Positions 1,119 through 46,299 of a DNA stretch of 64,000 bases are shown in pieces. Position numbers and translations under genes: made by a program. The notes under the pieces are model-generated. The model did not search any database. It worked only from the letters and a program-made list of their open reading frames with translations, and was not told the origin of the DNA. The stretch's first letter is position 1. Each line of letters opens with the position of its first letter. The DNA comes from Escherichia phage vB_EcoM_PD205. The stretch lies in the sequence record ON922919. The stretch is one strand, 5' to 3'.

Positions 1119-1625
1119 TTAATAGTTATTAAGTTCTTTGTTTGTTTTGGCGAACTCACCAAAGTATTTAATTGCGGCATCATCATATGCTTTAGCAGCC
1201 TCCACTGGGTCAGTGAATGAACCTAATGCTATTTTGGTGCCTTTAACTTGAATTTGGGCTAGGTATTTACCATTACGAATACGCACACCTTTAAATCCAG
1301 AAGTGTTATTCTTGTTCATAGTTCTATTGCACATGTTCTGTGCATGAGTTGCCTCACGTAGGTTACACCAACGGTTATTGGCCCGGTTTGTATCATTATG
1401 ATCTACCTGTTCGGGCCATGAACCAGTCATGATACACCAGGCTATGTGGTGAGCCTTGTATTCCTGTTTATTAATGACAATCTTTCGATGTCCTCTGGAG
1501 CCTGATAAGCCAGTCTCCTTACCCCTTACGTTGATGTACACCAAAGGACTATGAGTCCAATGAAATGTTCCATTCACTGGGTCATAGTCGATTAGTTCCA
1601 TCAACTCTGCTTGAGTTGGTTTCAT
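1119..1625 (-). CDS. HNH homing endonuclease with C-terminal AP2-like DNA-binding domain
   Basis: 168 aa ORF; HNH-type core (GHRKIVINKQEYKAHHIAWCIMTGSWPEQVDHNDTNRANNRWCNLREATHAQNMCN) and AP2-like tail (GFKGVRIRNGKYLAQIQVKGTKIALGSFTDPVEAAKAYDDAAIKYFG); start overlaps upstream stop (TAATG). Confidence 0.75.
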   Translation of the reverse strand: MKPTQAELMELIDYDPVNGTFHWTHSPLVYINVRGKETGLSGSRGHRKIVINKQEYKAHHIAWCIMTGSWPEQVDHNDTNRANNRWCNLREATHAQNMCNRTMNKNNTSGFKGVRIRNGKYLAQIQVKGTKIALGSFTDPVEAAKAYDDAAIKYFGEFAKTNKELNNY

Positions 1626-32088: not shown

Positions 32089-32148
32089 ACTGGCTTACTG
32101 TAGAGTAAGTTACCTATATACGATATAAGTTTGAATAGGAAACATGCT

Positions 32149-35100
32149 ATGTCAACATTTGACCGTCTGGCAGGTTTCGCAGACAGCATCACTAATGCTA
32201 AGCAAGTCGATGTCTCTACTGCAACCTCCCGGAAGCAAGCTGCACAGGGGCAAAGCCCTTTCCAATTAACCCCAGATAATGCTTACAATCTCCAGACTGG
32301 ACGAGTAGGTAATCTTGGAATCGGTGCATACGAACCAGGTTCACTTCAGGCAGATTTCACTCAAGCCTCCCCCTTAGAAATCATTAATAAGTATGGTAAT
32401 GAGCAAGGTCTACAGATTCTTAATAGTCGAGCTAATGCTGCTGATGCTGTACGTCAGGACTTATCTAAACAACGTACTAACGCAGAAGCATTTGGCGATA
32501 TTCTTTCTGGTGTTGGTCTTGGTGTTGCTAATACCCTTGGGGGCATTGCTGCTCTTGGCACAGGCTTGGTCAATGATAATGCCGGGGCATCCATTGCTTC
32601 CGGGCTTGACTGGTTGAATAAAGGTGTACACAACCTACAGTCTGATGCATTGAATGCTCGTCGTAATGTAGTACAGAACCAGAACGTAATATCTGCACAG
32701 GAGAATGATAAACTCTATAAGCAGGATATTGCTAAAGGAGAAAGTGAACTCGTTGCTTCCCTGTCTCGAATTGGTCGTGATGCTTATGATTCTGTCACTA
32801 ATACACTTGATAATGGCATGGCTGCTACAGATGGCCTGGCTGAGGGCGTTGGTTCTCTGTTTACTGGTGGTCCACTAATTCGTGGTGTATCTGCACTCGG
32901 TAAGGTAATGGTAGGTGGTGATAAAGCTGTTAAGGGCATTACCTTAGCTGCTGAGTTAGGTTCACGTCCTGCACGGATTGCACAGTCTGCTGGGCGTATT
33001 GCTGCGCCTGCTATAGCAATTGGTGGTATGGAAGCTGGTGGTGCATACCAACAAACTGCCAATGAAATTATGGAAATGCCATTCAGTGAACTGGCTGCTA
33101 AATCTCCTGTATACCAACAGCATATTAAAGACGGTCTGTCTCCTGAAGAAGCACGACGTCAGACTGCATCTGAAACAGGTATCACTGCTGCTGGCTTAAC
33201 TGCTCCAGTTGCTGCTCTTACTGCTCCACTGGTATCCAAGTTTGAACTTAACCCACTCAAGGTAGGTTCACTGGCTGGTGCTGGTTCTAACATGCTGCGT
33301 GAGACTGTAGAAGAAGGTATCCAGTCTGGTACTAGCCAGCTTGCACAGAACAAGGCAATTCAGGGTAATGTAGATGCTAAGCGTGATTTGCTTAAAGGCG
33401 TGGGTGAACAAACCGGTCTTGGTGCATTGTATGGCTTCGGTTCTGCTGGAGTTGCTCAAGCTCCTGGTACAACTGTTAAGGCTGCTGGTGCTGCCGTTGG
33501 TCCTGCTGTACGTACTACCCTGGCTGGTGCTTCTCTGGCTGGTAAGGCACTAGCAAAAGTAGCTTCCCCTATTACTACCATCCTGGTTCAACGTGGTGAA
33601 GAAGTTGCTAAGCGTAATGAACAAGCATCCCCTGTATCAGACGCTACAGTTAACGCTGCTGCACAGGAAGCCACTGCTCAGGCAGAACAAGCACAAGCAA
33701 CTGTTCAGGAAGCAGTAGATGCAATGGATATTTCTCCTGAAGAGAAAACTGCTGCTACTCAGTATGCTGCTGATTTAACTCAGGCAATGAAGTTTGACCC
33801 TGTAGAACTGGAGCAAGCTAGTCCGACAATCCGTGAAGCTGTTTCTGGTTCTACTAACCGTGTTGAAGCTATTCAGAAGATGGCTGACCTGGTTAATACT
33901 GCTGAAGACCCTAACGTTCAAATGGAAGCTGCAATCCAGATGTATGACAACATCATGTCTATGGATAGCTTCATTAACCGTGACCCAGGTGCATTAGCTA
34001 ATCTAGAACAAGGTTCTCCTGCTGCTGCAATCGTAGACCAGTTCTCCGGACTGATGGCTAACGTTCAGAATACACCGAAGGTACTCCGTGCATTCCGTGC
34101 TATCCATTCCATGATTCAGGAACAGGCAGAAGCAGGTAAACTGAAAGCCACTGAAGAAGCTAATCAAGCCCAGGCAAACAACATTGCTATGGCTGCTGAT
34201 ATGTCTCCAGAAGTACTGGATGCAGATTCAGTTAACATGGTTCTGAAACACGCAAGTGAAGGTAAGATTACACTTGGGAATCGTCAGCGTGCTGCCCTGC
34301 AATCTGCTGCTGCTTTATTGCAAGGAGCACGAGAATTTGACGCTAAAGCAGAAGAACTAGGCTTACGTCCTCAAGACATTGTTAGTAAACAGATTAAAAC
34401 CGACGAATCTCGTTCTAATGAAGGTCAGTACTCTGCGTTGCAACACGCTAAACGCATTCGTTCTGCGTACAACTCTGGTAACTTCGATTTGGCTTCCGCT
34501 TATCTCGACGACTTTATGAAGTTCGCCCAGCACATGCAGAATAAGGTCGGAGCGTTGAATGAGCATCTGATTTCTGGGAATGCGGATAAGAATAAGTCTG
34601 TCCATTATCAGGCTCTTACTCCCTCGCGTGAATGGGTACGTAGTCGTACTGGCCTCGGTGTCAATCCGTATGATACCAAGTCTGTTAAGTTTGCCCAGCA
34701 AGTAGGACTGGAAGCCAAGACCGTAGCTGATATTGCTAACGCACTTGCTACGGCTTACCCGGAGCTTAATGTTTCTCATGTGAAGGTTACCCCATTGGAT
34801 TCACGTCTGGACAAGCCTGCTGCCCAGGTAGTTAAAGAGTTCCGTCAGGGCAATCTTGATGCTGCTCAATCCCAACAGACCAATGAACCAGTGAATCAGG
34901 TTGATGAAACTCCTGTTACGAAACAGGAACCAGTTACCCCTACTGTACAGACTAAACCCTCTGTTAGTGAAGCTGTTAAAACAGAACCTACTAATAAAGA
35001 GTCTAATCCACAGACTGCAAAAGAACCTGAGAACCAGTCTGAAAAACAGGATACCATCAAGCAGTCTACTGAATCTGAAAGGGATGCTTATGTAAAAGAG

Positions 35101-38100
35101 AATACTATTTCCCAGGATACTCTTAATAAGTACGGTGACCGTAGGGAGAGTCCGTGGCTCTTTGCAGATGGTACTGTTGTTGGTTCTAATGGTGACCATA
35201 TCAGCCTGTCTGATGTATTTGGTCATGATGGTTATCGTGATATGTCATTAGATACTGGTGCTATTCGCTCCACTTTCTACAAAGGAAGTGAGCAACCATT
35301 TGTATCATTACAACTGTTTGATAATCAAAAGCTGACTCCTGAACAATTTAATACTGTTCAATCATTCGTAGAAGCAAACAATGCACTGATTCAGGTTGGT
35401 GTAGATACGTCTGGGCGTAATACCAATAACGTTAAGAAGGAAGAAGTATCACTGGCTCAACTGAAAGCAGACTATACCGTTGGTGGTAAACCTCTATCGG
35501 AAATGGAAACAGTGTTCCCTGTCTATAACAATGACAAGACACCGAACCAGTTCCTGAAAGCATTTACCCTTCCGGAAGAACCTAAGTCTCGTACCATTGG
35601 TTCTGAATCTCCTTTGACCGATGTTAAGAAAGCACTATCCTCTGTTGCTCGCTTTGAGGCATTCACTCAAAAAGAAAATAACGCTCTCACAAGTGATGTG
35701 ATTAAGCGTTACCAGGACTTGTTTGATTTTGGTGAAACTCTGAAGACTACCTTGTCTGACCGTCTTGCTAAGTTCCTTGCTAATAAGAATGTTGGTAAAC
35801 GCTTTGCAGAAGGTACTGAGGCTAATCGTTGGGTAGGTGGCAAACTGCTTAACATCGTAGAGAAAGATGGAGACACCTTTAAGTTCAATGACCAGTTGTT
35901 AGAGACTGCTGTACTTGCTGGTCTGCAATGGCGACTGACTGCTACACAGAATGCTGCCATTAAAGACATGAAAGACGTAGCTGCTATTACTGGTGTAGAA
36001 GCATCCCTGTTACCTGAAGGTATTCTGGCTGACTTCGAGAATGCTCAGACTCTGGTGGAAGCCACTAACTCTCTGGCTCAAAAGATTGAATCTTATTGGG
36101 GTTTGAATCGTAATCCTAATGCACCCCTGGGTTATACCAAGGGTATCCCAATGGCAATGGCTACAGAGATTCTGTCTTCTCTCATTGAGATGGGTGAAGT
36201 TAAAGAGTCTATGCTGGATGTGTCTGAGATTGACCCAGAATCCAATAAGACTGTTGGTCTGTATACCATTGAGAAGCTGGATGATAACGATGCCATTAAC
36301 AAATTCCCTACTGCTATTGAGGAAGCTGTCCTCGTAGAACCAGTAGAGAAACTGTACCTGGGTGATGATATTCCTTCCGTGGCTCAAACTCAGTTACGTA
36401 ACCCGGCTGTCAAGAATACCCCGGAACAGAAAGCTGCTCTTAAAGCAGAACAGGCTACTGAGTTCCGTGTACATATGCCGATGGTTAACTTCTACGAAGC
36501 ATTGGGTCGTGACAACATTCTGGAACTAATGGGTGCTGGTGCTCTTACCCCAGAATTGCTGAATGTGAATACTGCTAAATCTCTGGAAGGTAAAAACCTA
36601 TCCGTGTCTATGGCATATGATTCCTTGTTTGGTGTAATCAATCAGATTAAGGAACAAGAGAATGGACTGGATACACCTATCCACTATGGCTACAACATGA
36701 CCCGTGTAGGTCGTATGCAGATGCTTGGTAAGAACAACCCACAATCCAGCAAGCTGGTACGTGAAGCAATCCTACCAACTTTCTCTACCATCGACTTGAG
36801 TAATGAAAACAGCCAAACGTTCTCTGACTTCCAGCTTGGACTGGCTCAGGCATTGGGTATCAAAGTTCATAAAATGTCCCGTGAAGTTATGTCGGATGAG
36901 CTGACTAAAGCTCTGGAAGGTAAATTGAAACCTGCCGTTGATATGATGGTTGAGTTTGATAAGTCTGGGCACTTACCTACTGATGCTGTGGATATTCTGA
37001 AGACCTCTTTGGGTAATGATAAATCATTTGTAGCTCTCATGGCTCTGATGGAGTATGCCCGTTACTTGAACAGTGATGACCGAGCCAACTTTAATACTCC
37101 ACTGTACGTTGAAGCTGATGGTGTAACCAACGGGCCAATCAACGCAATGGTATTAATGACTGGTGGTAAGTTCACTTCAGACTGGATTAAGAATACTGCT
37201 AAGGGTGGTTTGTTCTTCGGTAAAGCAGGTAAGACCATGAACGAGCATCATTCGCATGAGGACAGTGTTGACCTGTATGAAGCATCCACTAATAGTCTAC
37301 AACAGGCACTGAATGAATTACGTAGTACTTATCGTAACAACGTTCCTGTTACGAACCAGATGAAGCATCTTCAGAAGTTAATGGACCTGTTCATTAAAGA
37401 CTTCAATCTTAATGAAGATGGTACTCTGGACCTGAAACGTGGTATCGCTAAAAACCCACTGACTATTACCATCTATGGCTCAGGTGCTCGTGGTATTGCA
37501 GGCAAGATGGTTAGTGCAATTACTGACACCATCTACGAACGCTTCAGTGACGTTCTACAAGCCCGTGCTGCTGACCCTAGCATTTCCCCAGCTATGGCTA
37601 TGTTTGGTAAGGAGGCTGCGTCTGAGGCCGATGCTCAGGCTATGCTGGATACTTTCCTTACTTCTATGGAAGCACTGACTGGTAATGTTCCAGTTATGCG
37701 TAAAGGTGAACTGTCTATTCAACAAGCAGAGGGTGCTCTGTCTGGTAAGTTAGACCCCCAGAAGTTTACCGTATCTGGCAATGCTCTGAAGAACCTGCAA
37801 GAGAATATGCTTCACCTGTTCGTTGAACCAATGCGTACTGGTATCCGAAATACCGTTGGCGAAGGTCTGATGCACTCTACTGAGAACTTGCAGAAGGCTA
37901 CTCAGATTCAATCTCTGGTATTGCAGGATATGTTCCAACAAGCAGTACAGGCTAAGCTGACAGAAAAAGAAAAAGACCCAACATGGAAGAAAGGTGATTT
38001 CTTAACACAGAAAGAACTAAATGAAATCCAGGCTTCATTATCTCCACTGGCTCCAATGATTGAGACTGGTTCTCAGACTTTCTACATTGCTGGTAGTGAG

Positions 38101-41100
38101 AATACTGATGTTGCTAACCAAGTATTGGCTACTAACTTAGATGACCGTATGCGTGTGCCAATGAGCATTTATGCTCCTTCACAGGCAGGTGTTGCAGGTA
38201 TTCCATTTATGACCATCGGTACTGGTGATGGCATGATGATGCAGACCCTTTCTACTATGAAAGGTGCTCCGAAGAATACCCTGAAAATCTTTGATGGTAT
38301 GAACATTGGCATTAATGACATCACTGATGCAAGCCGTAAAGCTAATGAGGCTGTATATACTTCCTGGCAGGGCAATCCTATCAAGAATGTTTATGATTCC
38401 TTTGCTAAGTTCATGAAGAATGTAGACTTCAGCAAACTGTCTGATGAAACCAAACAAGCTATCGCTAAGTCTGCTCTGGAGTATGACCAGCGTGAGGGTG
38501 CTACTGATGACCTGTTACGTGTTGGTGCTGAACAGATTGAACGTAACCTGCGTAACATTGCTTTAGGTGTAGATATTCGTCACAAGGTAATGGACCAGGT
38601 ACAAGTCACTGTTGACCAGATGGCTGCTGTAGGTGCTCCTTATGTGAACAACGGTAAAATCTCTTTGGAAGGTCTGACTGTAGACCAGCAAGTAGCTAAG
38701 CTGAACGAACTGTTTGATGCTGAATTAAACAAGCGTCGTGATGCAGTACGTGCTGCTAAAGCAGAACCAGTGAAAGAAGTACCAGCTATGGAACAGGTTG
38801 GTCGTGTACTGAAGTCTGGTGTACGTCTGCTGTCTAATACTGCTATCGCTAAACTGGCTAAAGAGATGTCTCCTGAACAACAAGCAGTATTAAAAGAAAT
38901 ACAGAAATCCCTTGCTGCCAAAGACTATAAGGTTGTTTACGGTACACCTTCTCAACTGGATGCTTATGCTATTGAGAAGAACATTACTCGCCCAGCACCG
39001 GAAGATATTGAAGCTGCTGAAGCAGGTAATGCATATGGCTGGACTAACTTTGAAGATAAGACCATCTACTTAGTTACCCCTTCCTTAGAGACTCTGGTTC
39101 ATGAATTGGTACATGCTTCTACTTTTGAATCTGTACTGGCTCACTATGAGGGTACTCCTAATGAAGCAGTCCAGAACATTGAAGACCTGATGAATCAGTT
39201 CCTTACTCTGGATGTTAAGGATGAATCCCCGGCAGTACGTGAAGCATATGCTGATGCACTGAATACCATTAATGGACACCTGTCTAATGGCTTCATTGAA
39301 CCAGCGATGGCTAAAGCTGCTGCGTTGAATGAGTACATGGCATGGGGCTTAACCAACCGTGAACTGATTGGTAAGCAGAAGAAAACTACTGCACTGAAAA
39401 CTATGGTTCAGGCTGTATATGAAGCAATCAAACGTCTGGTATTCGGACGTAAGAAAGCTCCAGCTAATGCAGATGATATGTTCTCTGGCTTACTGTTTAA
39501 CTCTGCTGTAGTAATGCGTGGACAAGCTCCTACTGCTGCTGTAGCCAAAGACACTACCCTGTTCCATAACAAAGCGTATGGTGAAAATACTCGTCTGGAA
39601 GGGCTAGGGAAAACCTTTGATAAGTTGATTACTGACTACATTGGTTCAGAACCAGTACAGCAAGTAATTCGTAAAGGTAAGTTCTCTGATGCAGTAGTGA
39701 ATGCAACTAAAGTAACTCGTGATGTTCAGGCACATGGCTTCACCATGAATATGCAGGAACAGCGTCTATTTACTAACATTGTTGCTGCACTAGCTACCGA
39801 GGCTGCTATTAACCCTGCTGCTTTGGCTCGTGCACAGGAATACTACACACATGTTACTAAGAACCTGACCGTTGAAGCATTCATGGCTGACCCGGATAGT
39901 ACTAACCCTGCTGACCGTTACTATGCACAGCAGAAGTTCGATACCATCATGGGTGCTAACAACATTGAGTTTGATGCACAAGGTCGTTCTTCCTTACTGC
40001 CTACCTTTGTTGGACTGGCAATGGTAAGTGAAGAGGTACGTAAAGTACTGGCTGATATTCCTGTTATGAAAGTAGATAAGAAATCAGGCAATACCGTTGA
40101 TGCAATGCTGACTAACATCGGTACTGCTGCAATGGCTAGTCTGAATGCTCGTGTAGCAGGCGATACTAAAGCTACTAACGTACAGGAAGGTATGGATGCA
40201 CTGGCTCAGACAATCATGCAGACCAGCCTTAATGCAGAATCCTTCTATGATTCCGTTGCTACTCCTACTGGTAATGCTATTGACCGTGCTAACCAGTATC
40301 TGGTGGACTCTATTGATGTACTGTCTACCCGTGCTTTGGAAGGTGCTCGTGAAGTTGCAGCTAATACCAAGAATCCATTGGTTAAAGGTGCTGCTCATGC
40401 TGCACAACTGATAGCTGCTATCGCTACAGAGAAGAATGGTTCAATCGTAGCTGAAGGTGTTATGGCTGCAATGAACCAAGGTAAAGTATGGCAACCTTTC
40501 CATGACCTGGTTAATGACTTAACTGGTCGTACTAAGAGCAATGCTTCTGTTTATGATTTGATTAAAGCAGTACGTGCACAGGTACAGGCTGACCGTCAGC
40601 AATTCCGTGAGCATTTACCTACCACTATCGCATCTAAGTTCAGTCGTAAACTGACTAATGATGAGTGGAGAGCAATGCATACTGGTATGGGTAAGACTGA
40701 CTTAGCTGTTCTGCGTGACACTATGTCTCTGGATGAAATCCGTGACCTGCTGACTGACCAGAAGATTGTTGACCGTGAGGTTAATAAACTGGAAGCAGAT
40801 TTGCAGAAACAAGCCGGACGTAACTGGCCTCTGATTAACCGTAAATCTAAGCAACTAGCTCAGTATATGATTAACGGTACGGTTGGTAATAACCTGCTGC
40901 GTAATGCTACTGCAATTTCTCGCTTGCTGGGGGAACGTAAGACTACACGTTCTGTTGTAGATGTAGCTCAACTGGATAAATTGATTACCCTGTATGCACT
41001 GGAAGCAATGAGTAAGACTGACCGTGAGATGTTATCTTCACTGGCTCAGACAGAAATTGAAGGTATGGATTTTGCTACTTCTTATCTGGTTGGTCAGCGT

Positions 41101-42903
41101 AAAGATGAAATGGCTAAAGCTAAGTCTGATAGTCGTGCAACCTTGAACCAGTACAAAGGGTATATCCCTAGCGAGAACAAACAGGGAGTTAACCTGATTG
41201 TTGCTGAAGATAGTCAGTTCTCTGATTTGATTGAGAAATCCTATGTACGTCTGGGTACTTATCAGGGTAGTTCTGCTAACCGTGGTGCAGCACGTAGTTA
41301 CTACTTTGCACCGGTACAGGCACAGGCTCCATTCTCACAGGGTATCCTACAGAACGTTCGCAATACTGCTGGTGGTGTAGACCTTGGTACAGGCTTTACG
41401 ATGGGAACCATGGTAGCTGGTCGTATCACTGACAAACCTTCCGTAGACCGTATTACTAAAGCACTGGCTCGTGGTGAACGTGGTAATGAACCACTGCTGC
41501 CTGTATATGATGCCAATGGTAATGTGATTGCTTACGAGCAATCTATTGACCCTAATATGCTGAAGCACATTGAAGGTGAGAACCATCTTGCTCGTGCAAT
41601 TGGTGTATGGCGTGGTCGTCAAGTAGAAGAAGCTAAGGCCCAGCGTTTCAACGATATTCTGATTGAGAATCTGCACAGCATGTATGAGAACGACATTAAG
41701 ATGTCTGCTTCTAATAAGTCCCAGTACGTTAACCTTCTTGGTTCTAAACTGGACCCAGTAACTGCCGATGCTCTTAAACTGATGAACAGTGAAACTCGTC
41801 AGAAAGCAGAAAGTCTGTTTGGTCCGGGTGAGTTGTGGGTACGTCGTGACATGCTTAATGATGCTTTAGGTTATCGTGCAGCTTCTGTGGGTGATGCCTG
41901 GTCTGGTAATTCTCGTTGGTCCCCAGAAACACTGGATACCTTCAAGAAAGCTATGCTTGGTGTCTTCGGTAACCGTGCCTATAAGTATGTAATGGGTGGT
42001 GAGAATCTGGTTCAAAACTTAGTTAAAGAAGCTAAGACTCTGATTGTAGTTAAATCAGTAGTCGTACCTGCTGTTAACTTCCTGGCTAACCTTTACCAGA
42101 TGGTTGCTCGTGGTGTACCTGTTAAGAATATTGCTAAGAGCATTCCACAGAAGACTGCTGAGATTAACCAGTATCTGAAATCTCGTCTGCGTCAGGTAGA
42201 TGCAGAAGCAGAGTTACGTGCAGCTACTAACCCGAACCAGATTCGTAAGCTGAAGGCCGAGATTCAGTCCATCACGGATAGCCATAAGCGTTTAAGTATC
42301 TGGCCTCTGCTGGAAGCTGGCGAGTTCTCCTCAATTGCAGATGCTGGTATTGGACGTGATGACATCCTGATTACTGAAGGTAAACTTCACGAGTACATGG
42401 ATAAGCTGGCTGATAAGCTGCCTAAGTCTGTACGTAACGCAGGACGATATGCACTTATTACTAAGGATACTGCTCTGTTTCAGGGTATCCAGAAGACGGT
42501 TGAATACTCTGACTTTATCGCTAAGGCAATCATCTATGATGAACTGACTCAGCGTAAAGGTAAGACTCGTGAAGAAGCACTTGGACGTGTAACGGAAGAG
42601 TTCATTAACTATGACCGTTTGCCAGGTCGCTTCCGTGGGTATATGGAAAGTGTTGGTCTGATGTGGTTCTACAACTTTAAGATTCGTTCTGCAAAAGTTG
42701 CAGTGTCCATGATTCGTAACAACCCAGTCCATGCTGCTATGGCTATGTTGGCCCCAACTCCTACCATGTTTGGTAATGTTGGTCTGCCTATTCAGGATAA
42801 CATCTTTAGCATTGCTGCACAGGGTAACCTTGGTTACTCCTTCGGTTTCGGTCAAGGTTTACGTGCCCATAACCTTAACCCTTGGCTCAACCTTACTAAC
42901 TAA
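32149..42903 (+). CDS. virion-encapsidated RNA polymerase (N4 vRNAP-like giant protein, about 3584 aa)
   Basis: ORF track 32131..42903 begins at TTG; ATG 32149 with AGGA RBS chosen; 10.8 kb single ORF; central region carries T7-like motifs (KRGIAKNPLTITIYGSG motif B-like, MTIGTGDGMMMQT motif C-like). Confidence 0.85.
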   Translation: MSTFDRLAGFADSITNAKQVDVSTATSRKQAAQGQSPFQLTPDNAYNLQTGRVGNLGIGAYEPGSLQADFTQASPLEIINKYGNEQGLQILNSRANAADAVRQDLSKQRTNAEAFGDILSGVGLGVANTLGGIAALGTGLVNDNAGASIASGLDWLNKGVHNLQSDALNARRNVVQNQNVISAQENDKLYKQDIAKGESELVASLSRIGRDAYDSVTNTLDNGMAATDGLAEGVGSLFTGGPLIRGVSALGKVMVGGDKAVKGITLAAELGSRPARIAQSAGRIAAPAIAIGGMEAGGAYQQTANEIMEMPFSELAAKSPVYQQHIKDGLSPEEARRQTASETGITAAGLTAPVAALTAPLVSKFELNPLKVGSLAGAGSNMLRETVEEGIQSGTSQLAQNKAIQGNVDAKRDLLKGVGEQTGLGALYGFGSAGVAQAPGTTVKAAGAAVGPAVRTTLAGASLAGKALAKVASPITTILVQRGEEVAKRNEQASPVSDATVNAAAQEATAQAEQAQATVQEAVDAMDISPEEKTAATQYAADLTQAMKFDPVELEQASPTIREAVSGSTNRVEAIQKMADLVNTAEDPNVQMEAAIQMYDNIMSMDSFINRDPGALANLEQGSPAAAIVDQFSGLMANVQNTPKVLRAFRAIHSMIQEQAEAGKLKATEEANQAQANNIAMAADMSPEVLDADSVNMVLKHASEGKITLGNRQRAALQSAAALLQGAREFDAKAEELGLRPQDIVSKQIKTDESRSNEGQYSALQHAKRIRSAYNSGNFDLASAYLDDFMKFAQHMQNKVGALNEHLISGNADKNKSVHYQALTPSREWVRSRTGLGVNPYDTKSVKFAQQVGLEAKTVADIANALATAYPELNVSHVKVTPLDSRLDKPAAQVVKEFRQGNLDAAQSQQTNEPVNQVDETPVTKQEPVTPTVQTKPSVSEAVKTEPTNKESNPQTAKEPENQSEKQDTIKQSTESERDAYVKENTISQDTLNKYGDRRESPWLFADGTVVGSNGDHISLSDVFGHDGYRDMSLDTGAIRSTFYKGSEQPFVSLQLFDNQKLTPEQFNTVQSFVEANNALIQVGVDTSGRNTNNVKKEEVSLAQLKADYTVGGKPLSEMETVFPVYNNDKTPNQFLKAFTLPEEPKSRTIGSESPLTDVKKALSSVARFEAFTQKENNALTSDVIKRYQDLFDFGETLKTTLSDRLAKFLANKNVGKRFAEGTEANRWVGGKLLNIVEKDGDTFKFNDQLLETAVLAGLQWRLTATQNAAIKDMKDVAAITGVEASLLPEGILADFENAQTLVEATNSLAQKIESYWGLNRNPNAPLGYTKGIPMAMATEILSSLIEMGEVKESMLDVSEIDPESNKTVGLYTIEKLDDNDAINKFPTAIEEAVLVEPVEKLYLGDDIPSVAQTQLRNPAVKNTPEQKAALKAEQATEFRVHMPMVNFYEALGRDNILELMGAGALTPELLNVNTAKSLEGKNLSVSMAYDSLFGVINQIKEQENGLDTPIHYGYNMTRVGRMQMLGKNNPQSSKLVREAILPTFSTIDLSNENSQTFSDFQLGLAQALGIKVHKMSREVMSDELTKALEGKLKPAVDMMVEFDKSGHLPTDAVDILKTSLGNDKSFVALMALMEYARYLNSDDRANFNTPLYVEADGVTNGPINAMVLMTGGKFTSDWIKNTAKGGLFFGKAGKTMNEHHSHEDSVDLYEASTNSLQQALNELRSTYRNNVPVTNQMKHLQKLMDLFIKDFNLNEDGTLDLKRGIAKNPLTITIYGSGARGIAGKMVSAITDTIYERFSDVLQARAADPSISPAMAMFGKEAASEADAQAMLDTFLTSMEALTGNVPVMRKGELSIQQAEGALSGKLDPQKFTVSGNALKNLQENMLHLFVEPMRTGIRNTVGEGLMHSTENLQKATQIQSLVLQDMFQQAVQAKLTEKEKDPTWKKGDFLTQKELNEIQASLSPLAPMIETGSQTFYIAGSENTDVANQVLATNLDDRMRVPMSIYAPSQAGVAGIPFMTIGTGDGMMMQTLSTMKGAPKNTLKIFDGMNIGINDITDASRKANEAVYTSWQGNPIKNVYDSFAKFMKNVDFSKLSDETKQAIAKSALEYDQREGATDDLLRVGAEQIERNLRNIALGVDIRHKVMDQVQVTVDQMAAVGAPYVNNGKISLEGLTVDQQVAKLNELFDAELNKRRDAVRAAKAEPVKEVPAMEQVGRVLKSGVRLLSNTAIAKLAKEMSPEQQAVLKEIQKSLAAKDYKVVYGTPSQLDAYAIEKNITRPAPEDIEAAEAGNAYGWTNFEDKTIYLVTPSLETLVHELVHASTFESVLAHYEGTPNEAVQNIEDLMNQFLTLDVKDESPAVREAYADALNTINGHLSNGFIEPAMAKAAALNEYMAWGLTNRELIGKQKKTTALKTMVQAVYEAIKRLVFGRKKAPANADDMFSGLLFNSAVVMRGQAPTAAVAKDTTLFHNKAYGENTRLEGLGKTFDKLITDYIGSEPVQQVIRKGKFSDAVVNATKVTRDVQAHGFTMNMQEQRLFTNIVAALATEAAINPAALARAQEYYTHVTKNLTVEAFMADPDSTNPADRYYAQQKFDTIMGANNIEFDAQGRSSLLPTFVGLAMVSEEVRKVLADIPVMKVDKKSGNTVDAMLTNIGTAAMASLNARVAGDTKATNVQEGMDALAQTIMQTSLNAESFYDSVATPTGNAIDRANQYLVDSIDVLSTRALEGAREVAANTKNPLVKGAAHAAQLIAAIATEKNGSIVAEGVMAAMNQGKVWQPFHDLVNDLTGRTKSNASVYDLIKAVRAQVQADRQQFREHLPTTIASKFSRKLTNDEWRAMHTGMGKTDLAVLRDTMSLDEIRDLLTDQKIVDREVNKLEADLQKQAGRNWPLINRKSKQLAQYMINGTVGNNLLRNATAISRLLGERKTTRSVVDVAQLDKLITLYALEAMSKTDREMLSSLAQTEIEGMDFATSYLVGQRKDEMAKAKSDSRATLNQYKGYIPSENKQGVNLIVAEDSQFSDLIEKSYVRLGTYQGSSANRGAARSYYFAPVQAQAPFSQGILQNVRNTAGGVDLGTGFTMGTMVAGRITDKPSVDRITKALARGERGNEPLLPVYDANGNVIAYEQSIDPNMLKHIEGENHLARAIGVWRGRQVEEAKAQRFNDILIENLHSMYENDIKMSASNKSQYVNLLGSKLDPVTADALKLMNSETRQKAESLFGPGELWVRRDMLNDALGYRAASVGDAWSGNSRWSPETLDTFKKAMLGVFGNRAYKYVMGGENLVQNLVKEAKTLIVVKSVVVPAVNFLANLYQMVARGVPVKNIAKSIPQKTAEINQYLKSRLRQVDAEAELRAATNPNQIRKLKAEIQSITDSHKRLSIWPLLEAGEFSSIADAGIGRDDILITEGKLHEYMDKLADKLPKSVRNAGRYALITKDTALFQGIQKTVEYSDFIAKAIIYDELTQRKGKTREEALGRVTEEFINYDRLPGRFRGYMESVGLMWFYNFKIRSAKVAVSMIRNNPVHAAMAMLAPTPTMFGNVGLPIQDNIFSIAAQGNLGYSFGFGQGLRAHNLNPWLNLTN

Positions 42904-43791: not shown

Positions 43792-44587
43792 CTTAGTAGC
43801 TTTAACGCAGCTAACGAGGCTTGTATGAGTGCTGGGATTTGCAACTCCCAGCATATCCCCACCGTTTTAGCTGACGGCAAACAGAGATTGATAGTCTCAG
43901 AGGATACTTTACTCAGGCTAGGATTTAAGGAGTTCCTATTCTCCAGCGAAATTCCCGTCGAGGGGAATAACAATACAATAGCAGCCACTGGACTGTCTTA
44001 CCAGTGTTGTCTTTAGAGTGCAATGCAATCAGGACTATGTTACTGCTAAATAGGTTGAGTCATGCCAGACTTTAACTGGCTCCTTCTTCGCAATCCTTAC
44101 ATACCCCTACATAATTATTGCGTTAAGCTTTTTTGTTTAAGTTTAAGTGAAGGCGTTCTTGCTGACTCATAATAGGGTGGGCGTTTGACGAATGACTAGT
44201 TCGTTACTACCCGTTTGCCATAAGTACCTGGCGACTTTGGTTTGAGGTGGGAGTCCGATTCCTGTACAGCCTTACCGTTCACACATTGGCAGCGTATCTA
44301 GAATAGCACTTCCAGCAACTGGATTTAACTGTTACACCTCAAATCTGGTAGGGGCGTCCAGAAGTCTCATCTGGTACTTACGCTGTCGTATGGTTACGAC
44401 TTACCCCCATAGTTAGTTGCTCGGATCACCCCCTTGACTAAAGTGACCTTTGAGGGGCTACGCTACACTATGTGTTTCATCCCATTACAGAGAATCATCA
44501 GGCGTATTAGTTGGTCACCCCGGATACCTACTTGCCGAGCATTGGTATCGTATGGCTCGTCCAATTAGAAGTAGCACTGTTGCAGTC

Positions 44588-44668
44588 GTCACTGCTCATA
44601 GGTAAGGATTCGAACCTTACAATACCATTGGTTTGCAACGTCGCTGTACCATTTCGCGTTCTATGCAA
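44588..44668 (-). tRNA. tRNA-like element (canonical T-arm, imperfect acceptor stem; anticodon not determined)
   Basis: Minus-strand TAAGG-TTCGAAT-CCTTA T-arm (plus 44597..44613); putative acceptor halves pair only over 5 central bp; cloverleaf not confirmed by eye. Confidence 0.25.
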
Positions 44669-44681
44669 TGCTACTTTGAAT

Positions 44682-44760
44682 TGGTTACCAGTGAGGGATT
44701 CGAACCCCCGGTTGGAGTCTATAGCTTACCGCAGCAGCCCTCCAATCTAGCGGTGTCACA
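44682..44760 (-). tRNA. tRNA-like element with encoded 3' CCA (anticodon not determined)
   Basis: Minus-strand GGGGG-TTCGAAT-CCCTC T-arm (plus 44693..44709) followed by ACTGGTA-A-CCA; matching 5' acceptor strand TACCAGT is found only 121 nt upstream, so the structure is non-canonical or interrupted. Confidence 0.3.
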
Positions 44761-44807
44761 CTTAGTCCAAACTTGAACATGTCAAGCCATCTCGTGCAAC
44801 TGGTAAT

Positions 44808-44880
44808 TGGTTCCGGCGTCTGGACTCGAACCAGAACACTCATGCCGTGCACGACACTAGTACCTACACCGGAATAAATT
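44808..44880 (-). tRNA. tRNA-like element with encoded 3' CCA (anticodon not determined)
   Basis: Minus-strand TCTGG-TTCGAGT-CCAGA T-arm (plus 44819..44835) followed by CGCCGGA-A-CCA; nearest complementary 5' acceptor (TCCGGTG) gives only about 63 nt; partial duplicate of the 3' region (CGTCTGGAC) at 44929..44937. Confidence 0.3.
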
Positions 44881-44992
44881 GCCAGGGATTCCACCTGGCT
44901 CCATCTGTTTTTATAGTCACTCAGATATCGTCTGGACTTGCTGTGGAGTGACGCACCATCTCACTCTTGAATGTTAACCCATTCCCAGCCCC

Positions 44993-45040
44993 ACAACACA
45001 CTCTACGGTTAAGATTATCGCGTGTGTTGTATGGTCTTGC
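44993..45040. repeat. inverted repeat, 9 bp stem (ACAACACAC ... GTGTGTTGT) with 30 nt loop
   Basis: Read directly; stem 44993..45001 pairs with 45032..45040. Confidence 0.5.
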
Positions 45041-45046
45041 TGGTCA

Positions 45047-45127
45047 CAACAGGTAAGAGCATTTAACAGAAGATAGGTCTGATTGCCTCGGATAATTTCT
45101 CAGTAGCCTAAATGCTCTTACCTGTTG
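45047..45127. repeat. 19 bp perfect inverted repeat (CAACAGGTAAGAGCATTTA ... TAAATGCTCTTACCTGTTG) with 43 nt spacer
   Basis: Verified base by base: 45047..45065 is the reverse complement of 45109..45127. Confidence 0.75.
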
Positions 45128-45412
45128 GTTCCCCGTTTCTAATACACGGACGGGGACACTCCATGGTCGTTTGATAATCAGGACGACTCACTCCTGACTG
45201 ACGCTTGGCTTATTAGGCTGCCATCAGAACAACATCATCGTTTGCATTTATGTTATTGGTTCGTTTCTAAAAAACCGCATAATCGCTTACGAAAACTATC
45301 AAAGAGTACACTAGCACAGGTAGCTACCCTGCCGTCTTCTCTATTTACACCGGCTACAGTGTAAACCTCCGCACGTTAGCCTAATGTACTCATTGATAGG
45401 ATGTCAGTAGGT

Positions 45413-45482
45413 CGGGGGCTGGATTCGAACCAGCGAGAGAAGTAGCGACCATCTGCACATGCCTACGTGCTACCCCGACCAT
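45413..45482 (-). tRNA. probable tRNA gene (about 70 nt; anticodon uncertain, candidates GCU or CGC depending on loop register)
   Basis: Minus strand: 7 bp perfect acceptor stem (GTCGGGG / CCCCGAC), 4 bp D-stem (GCAC / GTGC) with GG-containing D-loop, perfect T-arm GCTGG-TTCGAAT-CCAGC; anticodon stem imperfect and variable loop short, so needs tRNAscan-SE or ARAGORN confirmation. Confidence 0.45.
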
Positions 45483-45657
45483 TATAATAGGAGGGAGGGG
45501 ACGAGTCCTCCCTTTATACCCTATATTGCATGTAAGACCTAACAATTCGATGCTGTAGGTAGCTATGCTATCCGACATTTAACCCAGCCCATATAGGGGC
45601 TTATGTGATTAAAATGCTCAACATTGAGCGGTTAGTTTGATAAGGGATCTGAAGCCT

Positions 45658-45727
45658 TATCCCAAAGATACTAACCTTTGGGATATAGCCTATCATTCAG
45701 AAATGGCCCCTATAGGGAGAGGCCATT
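45658..45727. repeat. two adjacent strong hairpins (10 bp stem 45658..45685; 7 bp stem 45702..45727 whose loop reads CCTATAGGGAGA)
   Basis: TATCCCAAAG-ATACTAAC-CTTTGGGATA and AATGGCC-CCTATAGGGAGA-GGCCATT read directly; loop of second hairpin matches the T7 promoter initiation core CTATAGGGAGA. Confidence 0.5.
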
Positions 45728-46299
45728 GATTAACCCGAATGTTGCTTTACATTTGCTGTGATAACCTATTCTTAAAATAGTCTACCTGACGGATGGGCAT
45801 AAACCCTAGCGTCAGTGCCATACGGCAAAGATTAAGTTAAGAAAGGTTATGATAGGAGTTCCTATCTCAAAGGATTCTGACAGAACCCTTCACGATATTA
45901 ACTACTCTTTTTCAATGCTTCAACTTCACCCTCTTTATACCAAGCATACGGTATTAAGATTTTGCAGCCTTATGAATCAATGTGGAATGCTTTGTTTCCT
46001 TCAGCAGGTTCTCCACCCATGAAAGAACTAACCTTTCCATTGAGCCAGTGAATAGTAAATTTGTTCATATTAACCCCGGTTGAACCAATGGACTTCGGAG
46101 AGTATTAAAGCCCACTGGTTCGGTTGTTGTTATTCTGGCGGCTTGTCACCACCGTGTTTACCACTGCATTTCCACAGGATAATGACAGTGATGATAAAAG
46201 CTATGTATGGAGCCGACACGTCTATAATCCTGACCAGTAGTAGCATCAGGACTATAAACACTACCACACCTAGCAGCAGCTTCTGAGCCACCTACCAGA

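Follow-up and report, generated by a model that had tools for sequence, protein, structure and literature searches.

Several described systems bear on the locus analysed here. RNase III stalks are known from rRNA operon stems, 23S rRNA intervening sequences (as in Salmonella) and the R sites of phage T7, and duplexes of 19-21 bp are of a size that E. coli RNase III typically cleaves. The species 1 and species 2 stable RNAs of phage T4 (rnaC and rnaD) are reportedly small, hairpin-rich, and co-transcribed and processed with the phage tRNAs, and species 1 is said to be an RNase III substrate in vitro. Further points of reference are tmRNA (SsrA), including its two-piece permuted alpha- and beta-proteobacterial forms, and the bacterial Y RNA YrlA, whose Rsr/Ro partner E. 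coli K-12 is not known to possess. The hairpin promoters of the N4 virion RNA polymerase have a 5-7 bp stem and a 3-nt loop and lie in the early region. Long RNA stems in non-coding operons are a known kind of feature, and the palindrome taken in isolation is a modest one: it represents an extended RNA helix within an island of phage RNA genes and not an origin.

The window, meaning the whole stretch of 64,000 nucleotides analysed (Escherichia phage vB_EcoM_PD205, record ON922919), comes from an N4-like coliphage, genus Gamaleyavirus, family Schitoviridae. The initial annotation had singled out a perfect 19-bp inverted repeat, and the repeat is there: 45047-45065 (left arm, 19 nt, CAACAGGTAAGAGCATTTA) and 45109-45127 are complementary at 19/19 positions, with a spacing of 43 nt. 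No other perfect short-loop inverted repeat in the 64 kb exceeds 12 nt. The claim that chance is a very unlikely origin is borne out by an analytic expectation of 3.9e-5 per 64 kb, and the longest perfect inverted repeat in 60 first-order Markov shuffles measured 15 nt. RNA folding found both strands far more stable than shuffles (z = -5.3 and -6.4), the helix comprising 19 Watson-Crick pairs and one possible G·U. A search for the arms in related phages, as the initial annotation had proposed, recovered homologous hairpins in dozens of independently sequenced phages, and an assembly artefact, which it had raised as a way to refute the feature, is therefore very unlikely for the hairpin. The perfect form occurs in this genome alone among 50,697 phage records, the next best match being 95.2% identical. 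Of the two flanking structures, the 6-bp hairpin lies where it had been placed (44946-44951 / 44961-44966); the 9-bp inverted repeat exists with arms at 44993-45001 / 45022-45030, its outer coordinate having been put about 10 nt too far, at 45040.

Rfam gave no match in the window at gathering thresholds, the sole Rfam match to the hairpin itself being a spurious miRNA-precursor hit (E about 1, both strands). The features of an intrinsic terminator are lacking (41% G+C, a 43-nt loop, no T-run past the 3' arm), and a terminator scan did not report the hairpin. It also departs from the N4 hairpin promoters in stem (19 bp), in loop (43 nt) and in position, being downstream of a 3590-aa ORF at 32131-42903 which we take to be the virion RNA polymerase-sized gene. 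A role as host target or mimic was rejected, since a search of 5,426 E. coli genomes with the hairpin gave nothing meaningful, and a 14/17 complementarity to 44025-44041 is at chance level.

The surroundings are informative. As the initial annotation had stated, the repeat lies in a non-coding island, with no long ORFs from about 44400 to 45800; the flanks are 97-98% identical to PD38, ECBP1 and Bp4. The same interval holds four GGATTCGAACC-like motifs, which are reverse-complemented tRNA T-arms. ARAGORN calls one tRNA in the island, on the minus strand (45409-45480), and the protein genes from 46300 onwards are also on the minus strand. We therefore read the island as an RNA-gene array running from right to left, with co-oriented contents: a tRNA, then a long hairpin, then a tmRNA-like tag unit that includes two pseudoknots, followed by the 19-bp hairpin, a structured RNA termed module A, tRNA-like units and a hammerhead. 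The features are as follows, each with the evidence behind it in brackets.

44458..44507, minus strand: type I hammerhead ribozyme motif (weak Rfam match of 18.8 bits and motif scan)
44940..45046, minus strand: module A, a structured RNA of 3-4 helices (four-sequence comparison)
45047..45065, minus strand: 3' arm of the long helix, UAAAUGCUCUUACCUGUUG (inverted-repeat search)
45066..45108, minus strand: apical module (the 'loop'), 43 nt, GGCUACUGAGAAAUUAUCCGAGGCAAUCAGACCUAUCUUCUGU (conservation in distant phages)
45109..45127, minus strand: 5' arm of the long helix in the RNA sense, CAACAGGUAAGAGCAUUUA (inverted-repeat search; covariation)
45131..45197, minus strand: two H-type pseudoknots 3' of the tag (read from the sequence)
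45210..45245, minus strand: tag reading frame without a start codon, ANDDVVLMAA followed by two stops (Rfam tmRNA_permuted)
45251..45296, minus strand: conserved 5' block GUUUUCGUAAGCGAUUAUGCGGUUUUUUAGAAACGAACCAAUAACAUAAAU at a PK1-like position, including the resume-codon context (invariant alignment columns)
45296..45399, minus strand: second long stem with a 66-nt insert, 5' of the tag unit, arms 45381-45399 / 45296-45314 (inverted-repeat search)
45409..45480, minus strand: tRNA-like gene, called tRNA-Ala(CGC) by ARAGORN, without G3·U70

In every carrier examined, annotated or predicted tRNAs are on the same strand as the long-stem element. A promoter scan of the island, which did not extend to N4-type middle and late promoters, returned no convincing sigma-70 promoter. 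The tRNA-like gene at 45409-45480 has U3-A70 in place of the alanine identity pair G3·U70, carries U37, scores only 30.5 bits in Rfam (as tRNA-Sec), and is precisely missing from PGN829.1, Bas96 and PBM-3. The hammerhead motif is laid out as AUACGC, CUGAUGA, stem II, GAA, ACA-CAUAG-UGU, A17 and GCGUAG, and its homolog in UPM 2146 (locus L011, about 1310-1359, minus strand) differs in stems II and III with pairing kept. The motifs of the window, UPM 2146 and locus L112 are complete, with CUGAUGA-type and GAA segments, the A15.1-U16.1 pair of stem III and an NUH cleavage site.

Two further minus-strand units at 44808-44873 and 44690-44806 (about 63 and 117 nt) are tRNA-like, with good acceptor stems, an encoded A-CCA and T-arms (UCUGG-UUCGAGU-CCAGA and GGGGG-UUCGAAU-CCCUC), together with aberrant D and anticodon regions; neither was called by default ARAGORN or by Rfam. 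Directly past module A and ahead of the next tRNA-like unit, a terminator-like hairpin (GCCAGG-UGGAAUC-CCUGGC, then AAUUUAUU; 44881-44899, minus strand) may mark the end of one transcription unit within the island. In the records of Bas96 (L005), nithesis (L147) and Bas81 (L007), 'hypothetical proteins' of 30-70 aa are strung across the RNA islands on both strands; in all likelihood structured RNA has here been miscalled as genes.

Immediately upstream of the hairpin in the RNA sense stands a unit resembling the tag-encoding part of tmRNA. Its codons read GCA AAC GAU GAU GUU GUU CUG AUG GCA GCC UAA UAA, with the resume codon in the context AUAAAU-GCA-AAC-GAU. The Rfam permuted-tmRNA model (RF04321) matches 45213-45315 at 32.7 bits (E = 2e-4) against a gathering score of 47, and the Rfam tmRNA models remained below threshold in the window and in all loci scanned (RF04321 32.7, 29.6 and 29.2 bits versus 47; RF01850 13.7-20.4 bits versus 84). 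In IMG/VR, each of 50 units has a tag fitting the pattern A-N-[DE]-x-x-[VYF]-L-[AMI]-[AV]-A-stop, in 11 variants, and fGh-Ecl02 uses the synonymous GCU AAU at tag codons 1-2. The conserved 5' block recurs in P1, HK620, 7-11, Kevin, Akira and Det7. The pseudoknots found are the two 3' of the tag: PKa (CAGG 45196-45193 / CCUG 45182-45179; GUCGU 45187-45183 / ACGAC 45170-45166) and PKb (CAUGG 45165-45161 / CCGUG 45149-45145; CCCCG 45155-45151 / CGGGG 45135-45131). In the commoner sequence type, both helices of PKa and stem 1 of PKb are 97.8% paired with 6 compensatory pairs, a result matched by 0/500 shuffles; the window's type has the same topology, read from the sequence, with other sequences.

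The tag unit is present in 314 phage records, spanning N4-like phages, 45-50 kb siphophages, Ackermannviridae, P1 and HK620, and in prophages of 147 of the 5,426 complete E. coli genomes (about 3%). The P1 copy (NC_005856 68899-69061; L019 1501-1663) is in the ban-operon leader between the 'dicF-like region' and trnA/trnT, and that of HK620 (L020, about 1205-1370) is between pR'/qut and tQ. None of the records inspected annotates it, and the searchable, incomplete literature on phage tmRNA-like RNAs, tag peptides, and leader or tRNA-cluster hairpins yielded nothing relevant. A sigma-70-like promoter precedes the conserved 5' block by about 15 nt in Akira, Bas81 and pYD38-A, a place taken in P1 by a terminator.

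An alanine-type (G3·U70) tRNA-like domain was not found in the window, P1, HK620 or Akira, and ARAGORN at default settings called no tmRNA in the window or in about 150 loci; with relaxed settings (-ps80) it gave many mutually inconsistent permuted-tmRNA calls, of which only the tags were reproducible. Because no alanine-type domain was found and the Rfam scores are sub-threshold, we speak of a tmRNA-like tag unit and not of a tmRNA. Candidates for the missing parts were rejected. The ...CGGCUCC-A of fGh-Ecl02, proposed as a G3·U70 acceptor with the GGGGCUG of module A, failed on loci L079 and L131, which show GCCGUU / AACGGC followed by U-CCA; the acceptor candidate of the Kutterviruses, AACGGC-U-CCA, pairs with GCCGUU and has no G3·U70; and ring closure in the manner of tmRNA helix 2, between 5' GUUUUCGU and ACGAAAAC on the immediate 3' side of the stem, was confined to L062 and L120 and so is no general feature.

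The 19-bp hairpin belongs to a family of stems of about 19-21 bp carried by Schitoviridae, Drexlerviridae-like siphophages, Ackermannviridae, P1, HK620 and E. coli prophages. The stem starts 1-3 nt past the second pseudoknot in most of the 50 IMG/VR units, and relatives typically show 18-21 bp with one bulge and one mismatch. The common arms are CACAACAGGUAAGAGCAUU and AGUGCUCUUUCC-GUUGUG; the 5' arm of the window recurs unchanged in phage nithesis and several IMG/VR loci. Differing arms occupy the same position in Kevin (UAACUGAGAGGGUUAU), Det7 (ACAUCUGAGAGGGCACU) and the L099 (CCACCAAUGAGAGCACUG) and L058 (UAGCAGAGACUUGCUGG) types, with further distinct sequences in the L073 and L120 types. 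The second long stem of the window (45296-45399), also a member of the family, with 19 positions including one U·U and one U·G, has arms similar to the CCACCAAUGAGAGCACUG-type stems of L099, L130 and L087. Conservation of the arm sequence, and not just of pairing, is strong and goes beyond what a purely structural stalk explains. The long stem after the pseudoknots is missing in the closest relatives (PD38, ECBP1, Bp4-type), in phage 7-11 and in L100, so that the tag unit does not depend on it. Conversely, SF1-1 has the hairpin within an ordinary tRNA array, with no tag unit.

The pattern of substitution bears on whether the helix acts as RNA or as DNA. When arms-only constructs were aligned, each payload being swapped for a GAAA linker, 93.4% of cells were paired versus 83.5% in shuffles and at most 53% in slid controls, and compensatory double changes affected 9 of the 19 pairs of the long helix; the observed values were reached by 0/500 shuffles. 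Among 41 distinct homologous stems, transition mismatches were G·U on the tRNA strand in 59 cases and A·C in 14, counts which, like those for covariation, share ancestry and are not independent, one U·G being inherited by 20 of 25 copies. This symmetric alignment test replaced an energy-selected survey of 238 'long stems', which was discarded because choosing stems by their sense-strand energy favours G·U. Since the mismatches are G·U on the tRNA strand, the alignments show that it is as RNA, read from that (minus) strand, that the helix has been preserved. The settings are transcribed ones: in P1 the element lies downstream of the P1ban and P2ban promoters, and in HK620 within the late leader. 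The cruciform replication origin suggested by the initial annotation is accordingly not supported, in view of the G·U excess, the RNA-like covariation and the occurrence in transcribed leaders and tRNA arrays of unrelated phages.

The 'loop' was correctly measured at 43 nt in the initial annotation, which had not seen the strand or the tag-unit context; comparison of distant phages indicates that it is a conserved module in its own right. It is about 90-100% conserved in Bas81, fGh-Ecl02, UPM 2146, 1611E-K2-1, SF1-1 and L017, and the long stem of nithesis encloses the same 43-nt insert as the window. In Xanthomonas jumbo phages (XbC2, L013, L016) the 43-mer is closed by another stem of 7 bp, ACACUAC/GUAGUGU, and lies directly 3' of tRNA-Tyr, without a tag unit in XbC2. 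It matches no known ribozyme or RNA family in Rfam at E <= 10, and its internal pairing is weakly supported, comprising a UGM-GAAA-KYA mini-hairpin in three sequence variants. Like arms enclose other contents elsewhere: tRNA-like T-arm domains in PGN829.1, L099 and L039; in L112 a canonical type I hammerhead (CGCGC/GCGCG, CUGACGA, GUCC..GGAC, GAA, ACGC-AUUA-GCGU, C17); and unrelated inserts in P1 and HK620. Across these alignments the arms are conserved while the loop behaves as an exchangeable insert.

Exchange also involves larger units. The long hairpin and module A together make up a cassette (44939-45129), and at its place PD38, ECBP1 and PBM-3 have a pseudo-tRNA of about 90 nt, so that by sequence comparison the whole cassette has been swapped in the closest relatives. 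Module A has hairpins at 44993-45001 / 45022-45030, 44969-44984 and 44946-44951 / 44961-44966, helices that covary (six compensatory pairs among four sequences), and it is found alone, about 90% identical, in 45-50 kb siphophages. At gathering thresholds, Rfam matched none of module A, the hairpin and the tag unit. Another tRNA-like RNA, 'Module C', was observed in HK620 (L020, about 1483-1570), UPM 2146 (L011), 1611E-K2-1 (L009) and Akira (L023, about 1155-1285). It comprises a UGUGGUG acceptor strand, a D-like hairpin, a large insert, a T-like hairpin and CACCACA; its hairpin loops are mutually complementary and covary (GCUGAU/AUCAGC versus GUCGA/UCGAC), and its 5' acceptor strand overlaps GUUGUG, the last bases of the long-stem 3' arm.

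The perfection of the present copy is a separate matter. Of the 25 copies aligned, 20 have a bulged A5, 19 a U·U at pair 8-36 and 20 a U·G at pair 16-28, whereas the window helix is Watson-Crick at all three of these usually irregular positions. Its 3' arm differs from the common form (UAAGUGCUCUUUCC-GUUG) by three changes, each of which restores a Watson-Crick pair. Phage nithesis, also a Gamaleyavirus, shares the insert and the exact 5' arm of the window but has the imperfect 3' arm seen in most copies, the differences from it to the window (G>A, U>A and +U) all falling within the 3' arm. Quasi-palindrome correction by template switching is a known mutational mechanism, and it fits because the three changes are all in one arm. 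The perfection is most simply explained in this way rather than by a special function, with stepwise compensation a conceivable alternative route to perfect arms.

Taken together, we consider it probable that the inverted repeat is the closing helix of a structured minus-strand RNA cassette in a co-oriented array, with a role as a stalk. The stem of about 19-21 bp would form a rigid stalk that presents the apical module and lets neighbouring RNA modules fold independently. The long hairpin and the second stem (45296-45399) would bracket the tag RNA with stable duplex ends, which could protect it once RNase P has cut the array at the tRNA-like neighbours, the ribozymes have cleaved it and, possibly, RNase III has acted on the duplex. 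Transcription, cleavage and stability of the cassette RNA are all inferred, and RNase III could plausibly cleave a duplex of about 20 bp. Two of the roles put forward in the initial annotation, a processing site of a precursor RNA and a protein-binding site, are compatible with such a cassette provided that they are understood at the RNA level, given the RNA array, the hammerhead or tRNA-like inserts and the conserved arms and bulge.

A broader reading, which we regard as possible but doubtful, takes the hairpin to be one cassette of an undescribed, horizontally exchanged modular RNA-gene system in enterobacterial phages and prophages of N4-like, T1-like, Vi1-like, P1 and P22/HK620-like kinds, its stems serving for docking or processing with a specific partner and its inserts as effectors. 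Such a system would be centred on a tmRNA-derived 'tag RNA' without a tRNA-like domain of its own, which might re-programme host trans-translation, through a separate acceptor RNA or host SmpB, or act as a decoy for it. The 43-mer, the tRNA-like elbows and the hammerheads would then be interchangeable effectors, and for the 43-nt module one could think of a small ribozyme of a new type or of a site bound by some host factor.

The known size class of RNase III substrates, together with about two turns of mostly regular dsRNA (19 bp in the window, 18-21 bp in relatives), raises the question of whether the stem is a cleavage site and nothing else, the apical insert being excised and discarded as an intervening sequence and the tag RNA parted from the downstream modules. 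The inserts are indeed highly variable and sporadic, as in rRNA intervening sequences, and the array has RNA-cleavage elements in its hammerheads and tRNA-like units. However, the near-complete conservation of the 43-nt insert across very distant phages, and its closure in Xanthomonas phages by 7 bp, too short for RNase III, argue for an insert that has a function and is not thrown away; most copies also keep the bulge and the U·U mismatch, and the arms are conserved beyond the needs of RNase III. We judge this explanation unlikely. It is also rather improbable that the stem is an integral helix of an atypical, possibly two-piece phage tmRNA, needed for trans-translation from the ANDDVVLMAA template and corresponding to tmRNA helix 2 or to a pseudoknot whose place a hairpin has taken. 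The stem does directly follow the ssrA-like tag and its two H-type pseudoknots, with a gap of 1-3 nt in most units, and the tRNA-like or ribozyme inserts of some sister copies would open the loop, giving an RNA in two pieces that the stem keeps together. Against this, the G3·U70 domain is lacking, default ARAGORN found nothing in about 150 loci and Rfam stayed sub-threshold; the stem is missing after the tag unit in PD38/ECBP1, 7-11 and L100; the stem or the 43-mer lies beside ordinary tRNAs without a tag unit in SF1-1 and XbC2; and no general ring-closing helix emerged when one was looked for.

A perfect 19-bp palindrome in non-coding DNA, in a cassette that is horizontally mobile among phages and with conserved arms that could provide recombination homology, also invites an explanation at the DNA level, as an origin cruciform, a palindrome bound by a protein, or a small mobile DNA element with these arms as its inverted ends. 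Its homologs, though, are mostly imperfect, and a DNA-level element should treat the two strands alike, whereas the mismatches are strand-biased, with the G·U excess given above and U·G at pair 16-28 in most copies. Neither does the hairpin have the marks of terminal inverted repeats or a MITE: the arms are single-copy in the 64 kb, other near-matches being unpaired and in coding sequence, no target-site duplication was found at the hairpin (the flanks, CC and TG, are not duplicated), and a MITE-like repeat was rejected on the single copy. The short-stemmed N4-type hairpin promoters (5-7 bp, 3-nt loops) offer no parallel. An origin or cruciform role is disfavoured because the wobbles are strand-specific, the element is single-copy, and it lies within transcribed leaders and RNA-gene arrays of phages with unrelated replication systems, and we regard explanations at the DNA level as very improbable altogether.

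The RNA cassette belongs to a large and coherent set of structured RNAs, namely the tag unit with its pseudoknots, the conserved long stems and their swappable inserts, hammerheads, and tRNA-like units of aberrant form. This set is unannotated in well-studied phages (the P1 ban leader, the HK620 late leader); several hundred phage records contain it, as do prophages in about 3% of complete E. coli genomes. The long-stem family, the swappable inserts and the tag unit devoid of a tRNA domain do not appear to be described in Rfam or in the searchable literature, whose coverage is incomplete. If expressed, these RNAs would bear on phage control of ribosome rescue and tRNA biology, on the processing of tRNA islands and on the transfer of RNA modules between phages. 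For annotation practice, gene callers set spurious 'hypothetical protein' ORFs over the islands, as in the Bas96, nithesis and Bas81 records.

Compared with the described systems, the locus combines familiar traits in a different arrangement. The T4 species 1 and 2 RNAs are not known to go with a tag unit or to carry swappable inserts. YrlA shares the long stem of terminal ends, a conserved bulge and, in PGN829.1, L099 and L039, a tRNA-like cap, which there has T- and D-arms and no anticodon arm; the insert of the window, in contrast, is not tRNA-like, and Rfam YrlA matched neither the window nor 20 loci. RNase III stalks are alike in a duplex of about 20 bp within a polycistronic precursor, in the variable apex and in sporadic horizontal spread; they are unlike in that here the 43-mer is conserved and the arm sequence, the bulged A and the U·U persist across families. 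With tmRNA, the likeness is to the neighbouring tag unit and not to the hairpin: a resume GCA, a 10-residue tag AN[DE]xx[VYF]L[AM][AV]A, 1-2 stops and H-type pseudoknots after it. The tag unit differs from tmRNA in having no G3·U70 acceptor/T-arm domain at either end, with ARAGORN and Rfam sub-threshold, in the promoter or terminator that stands about 15 nt upstream of its 5' block in several phages, and in the long hairpins with swappable inserts that follow it.
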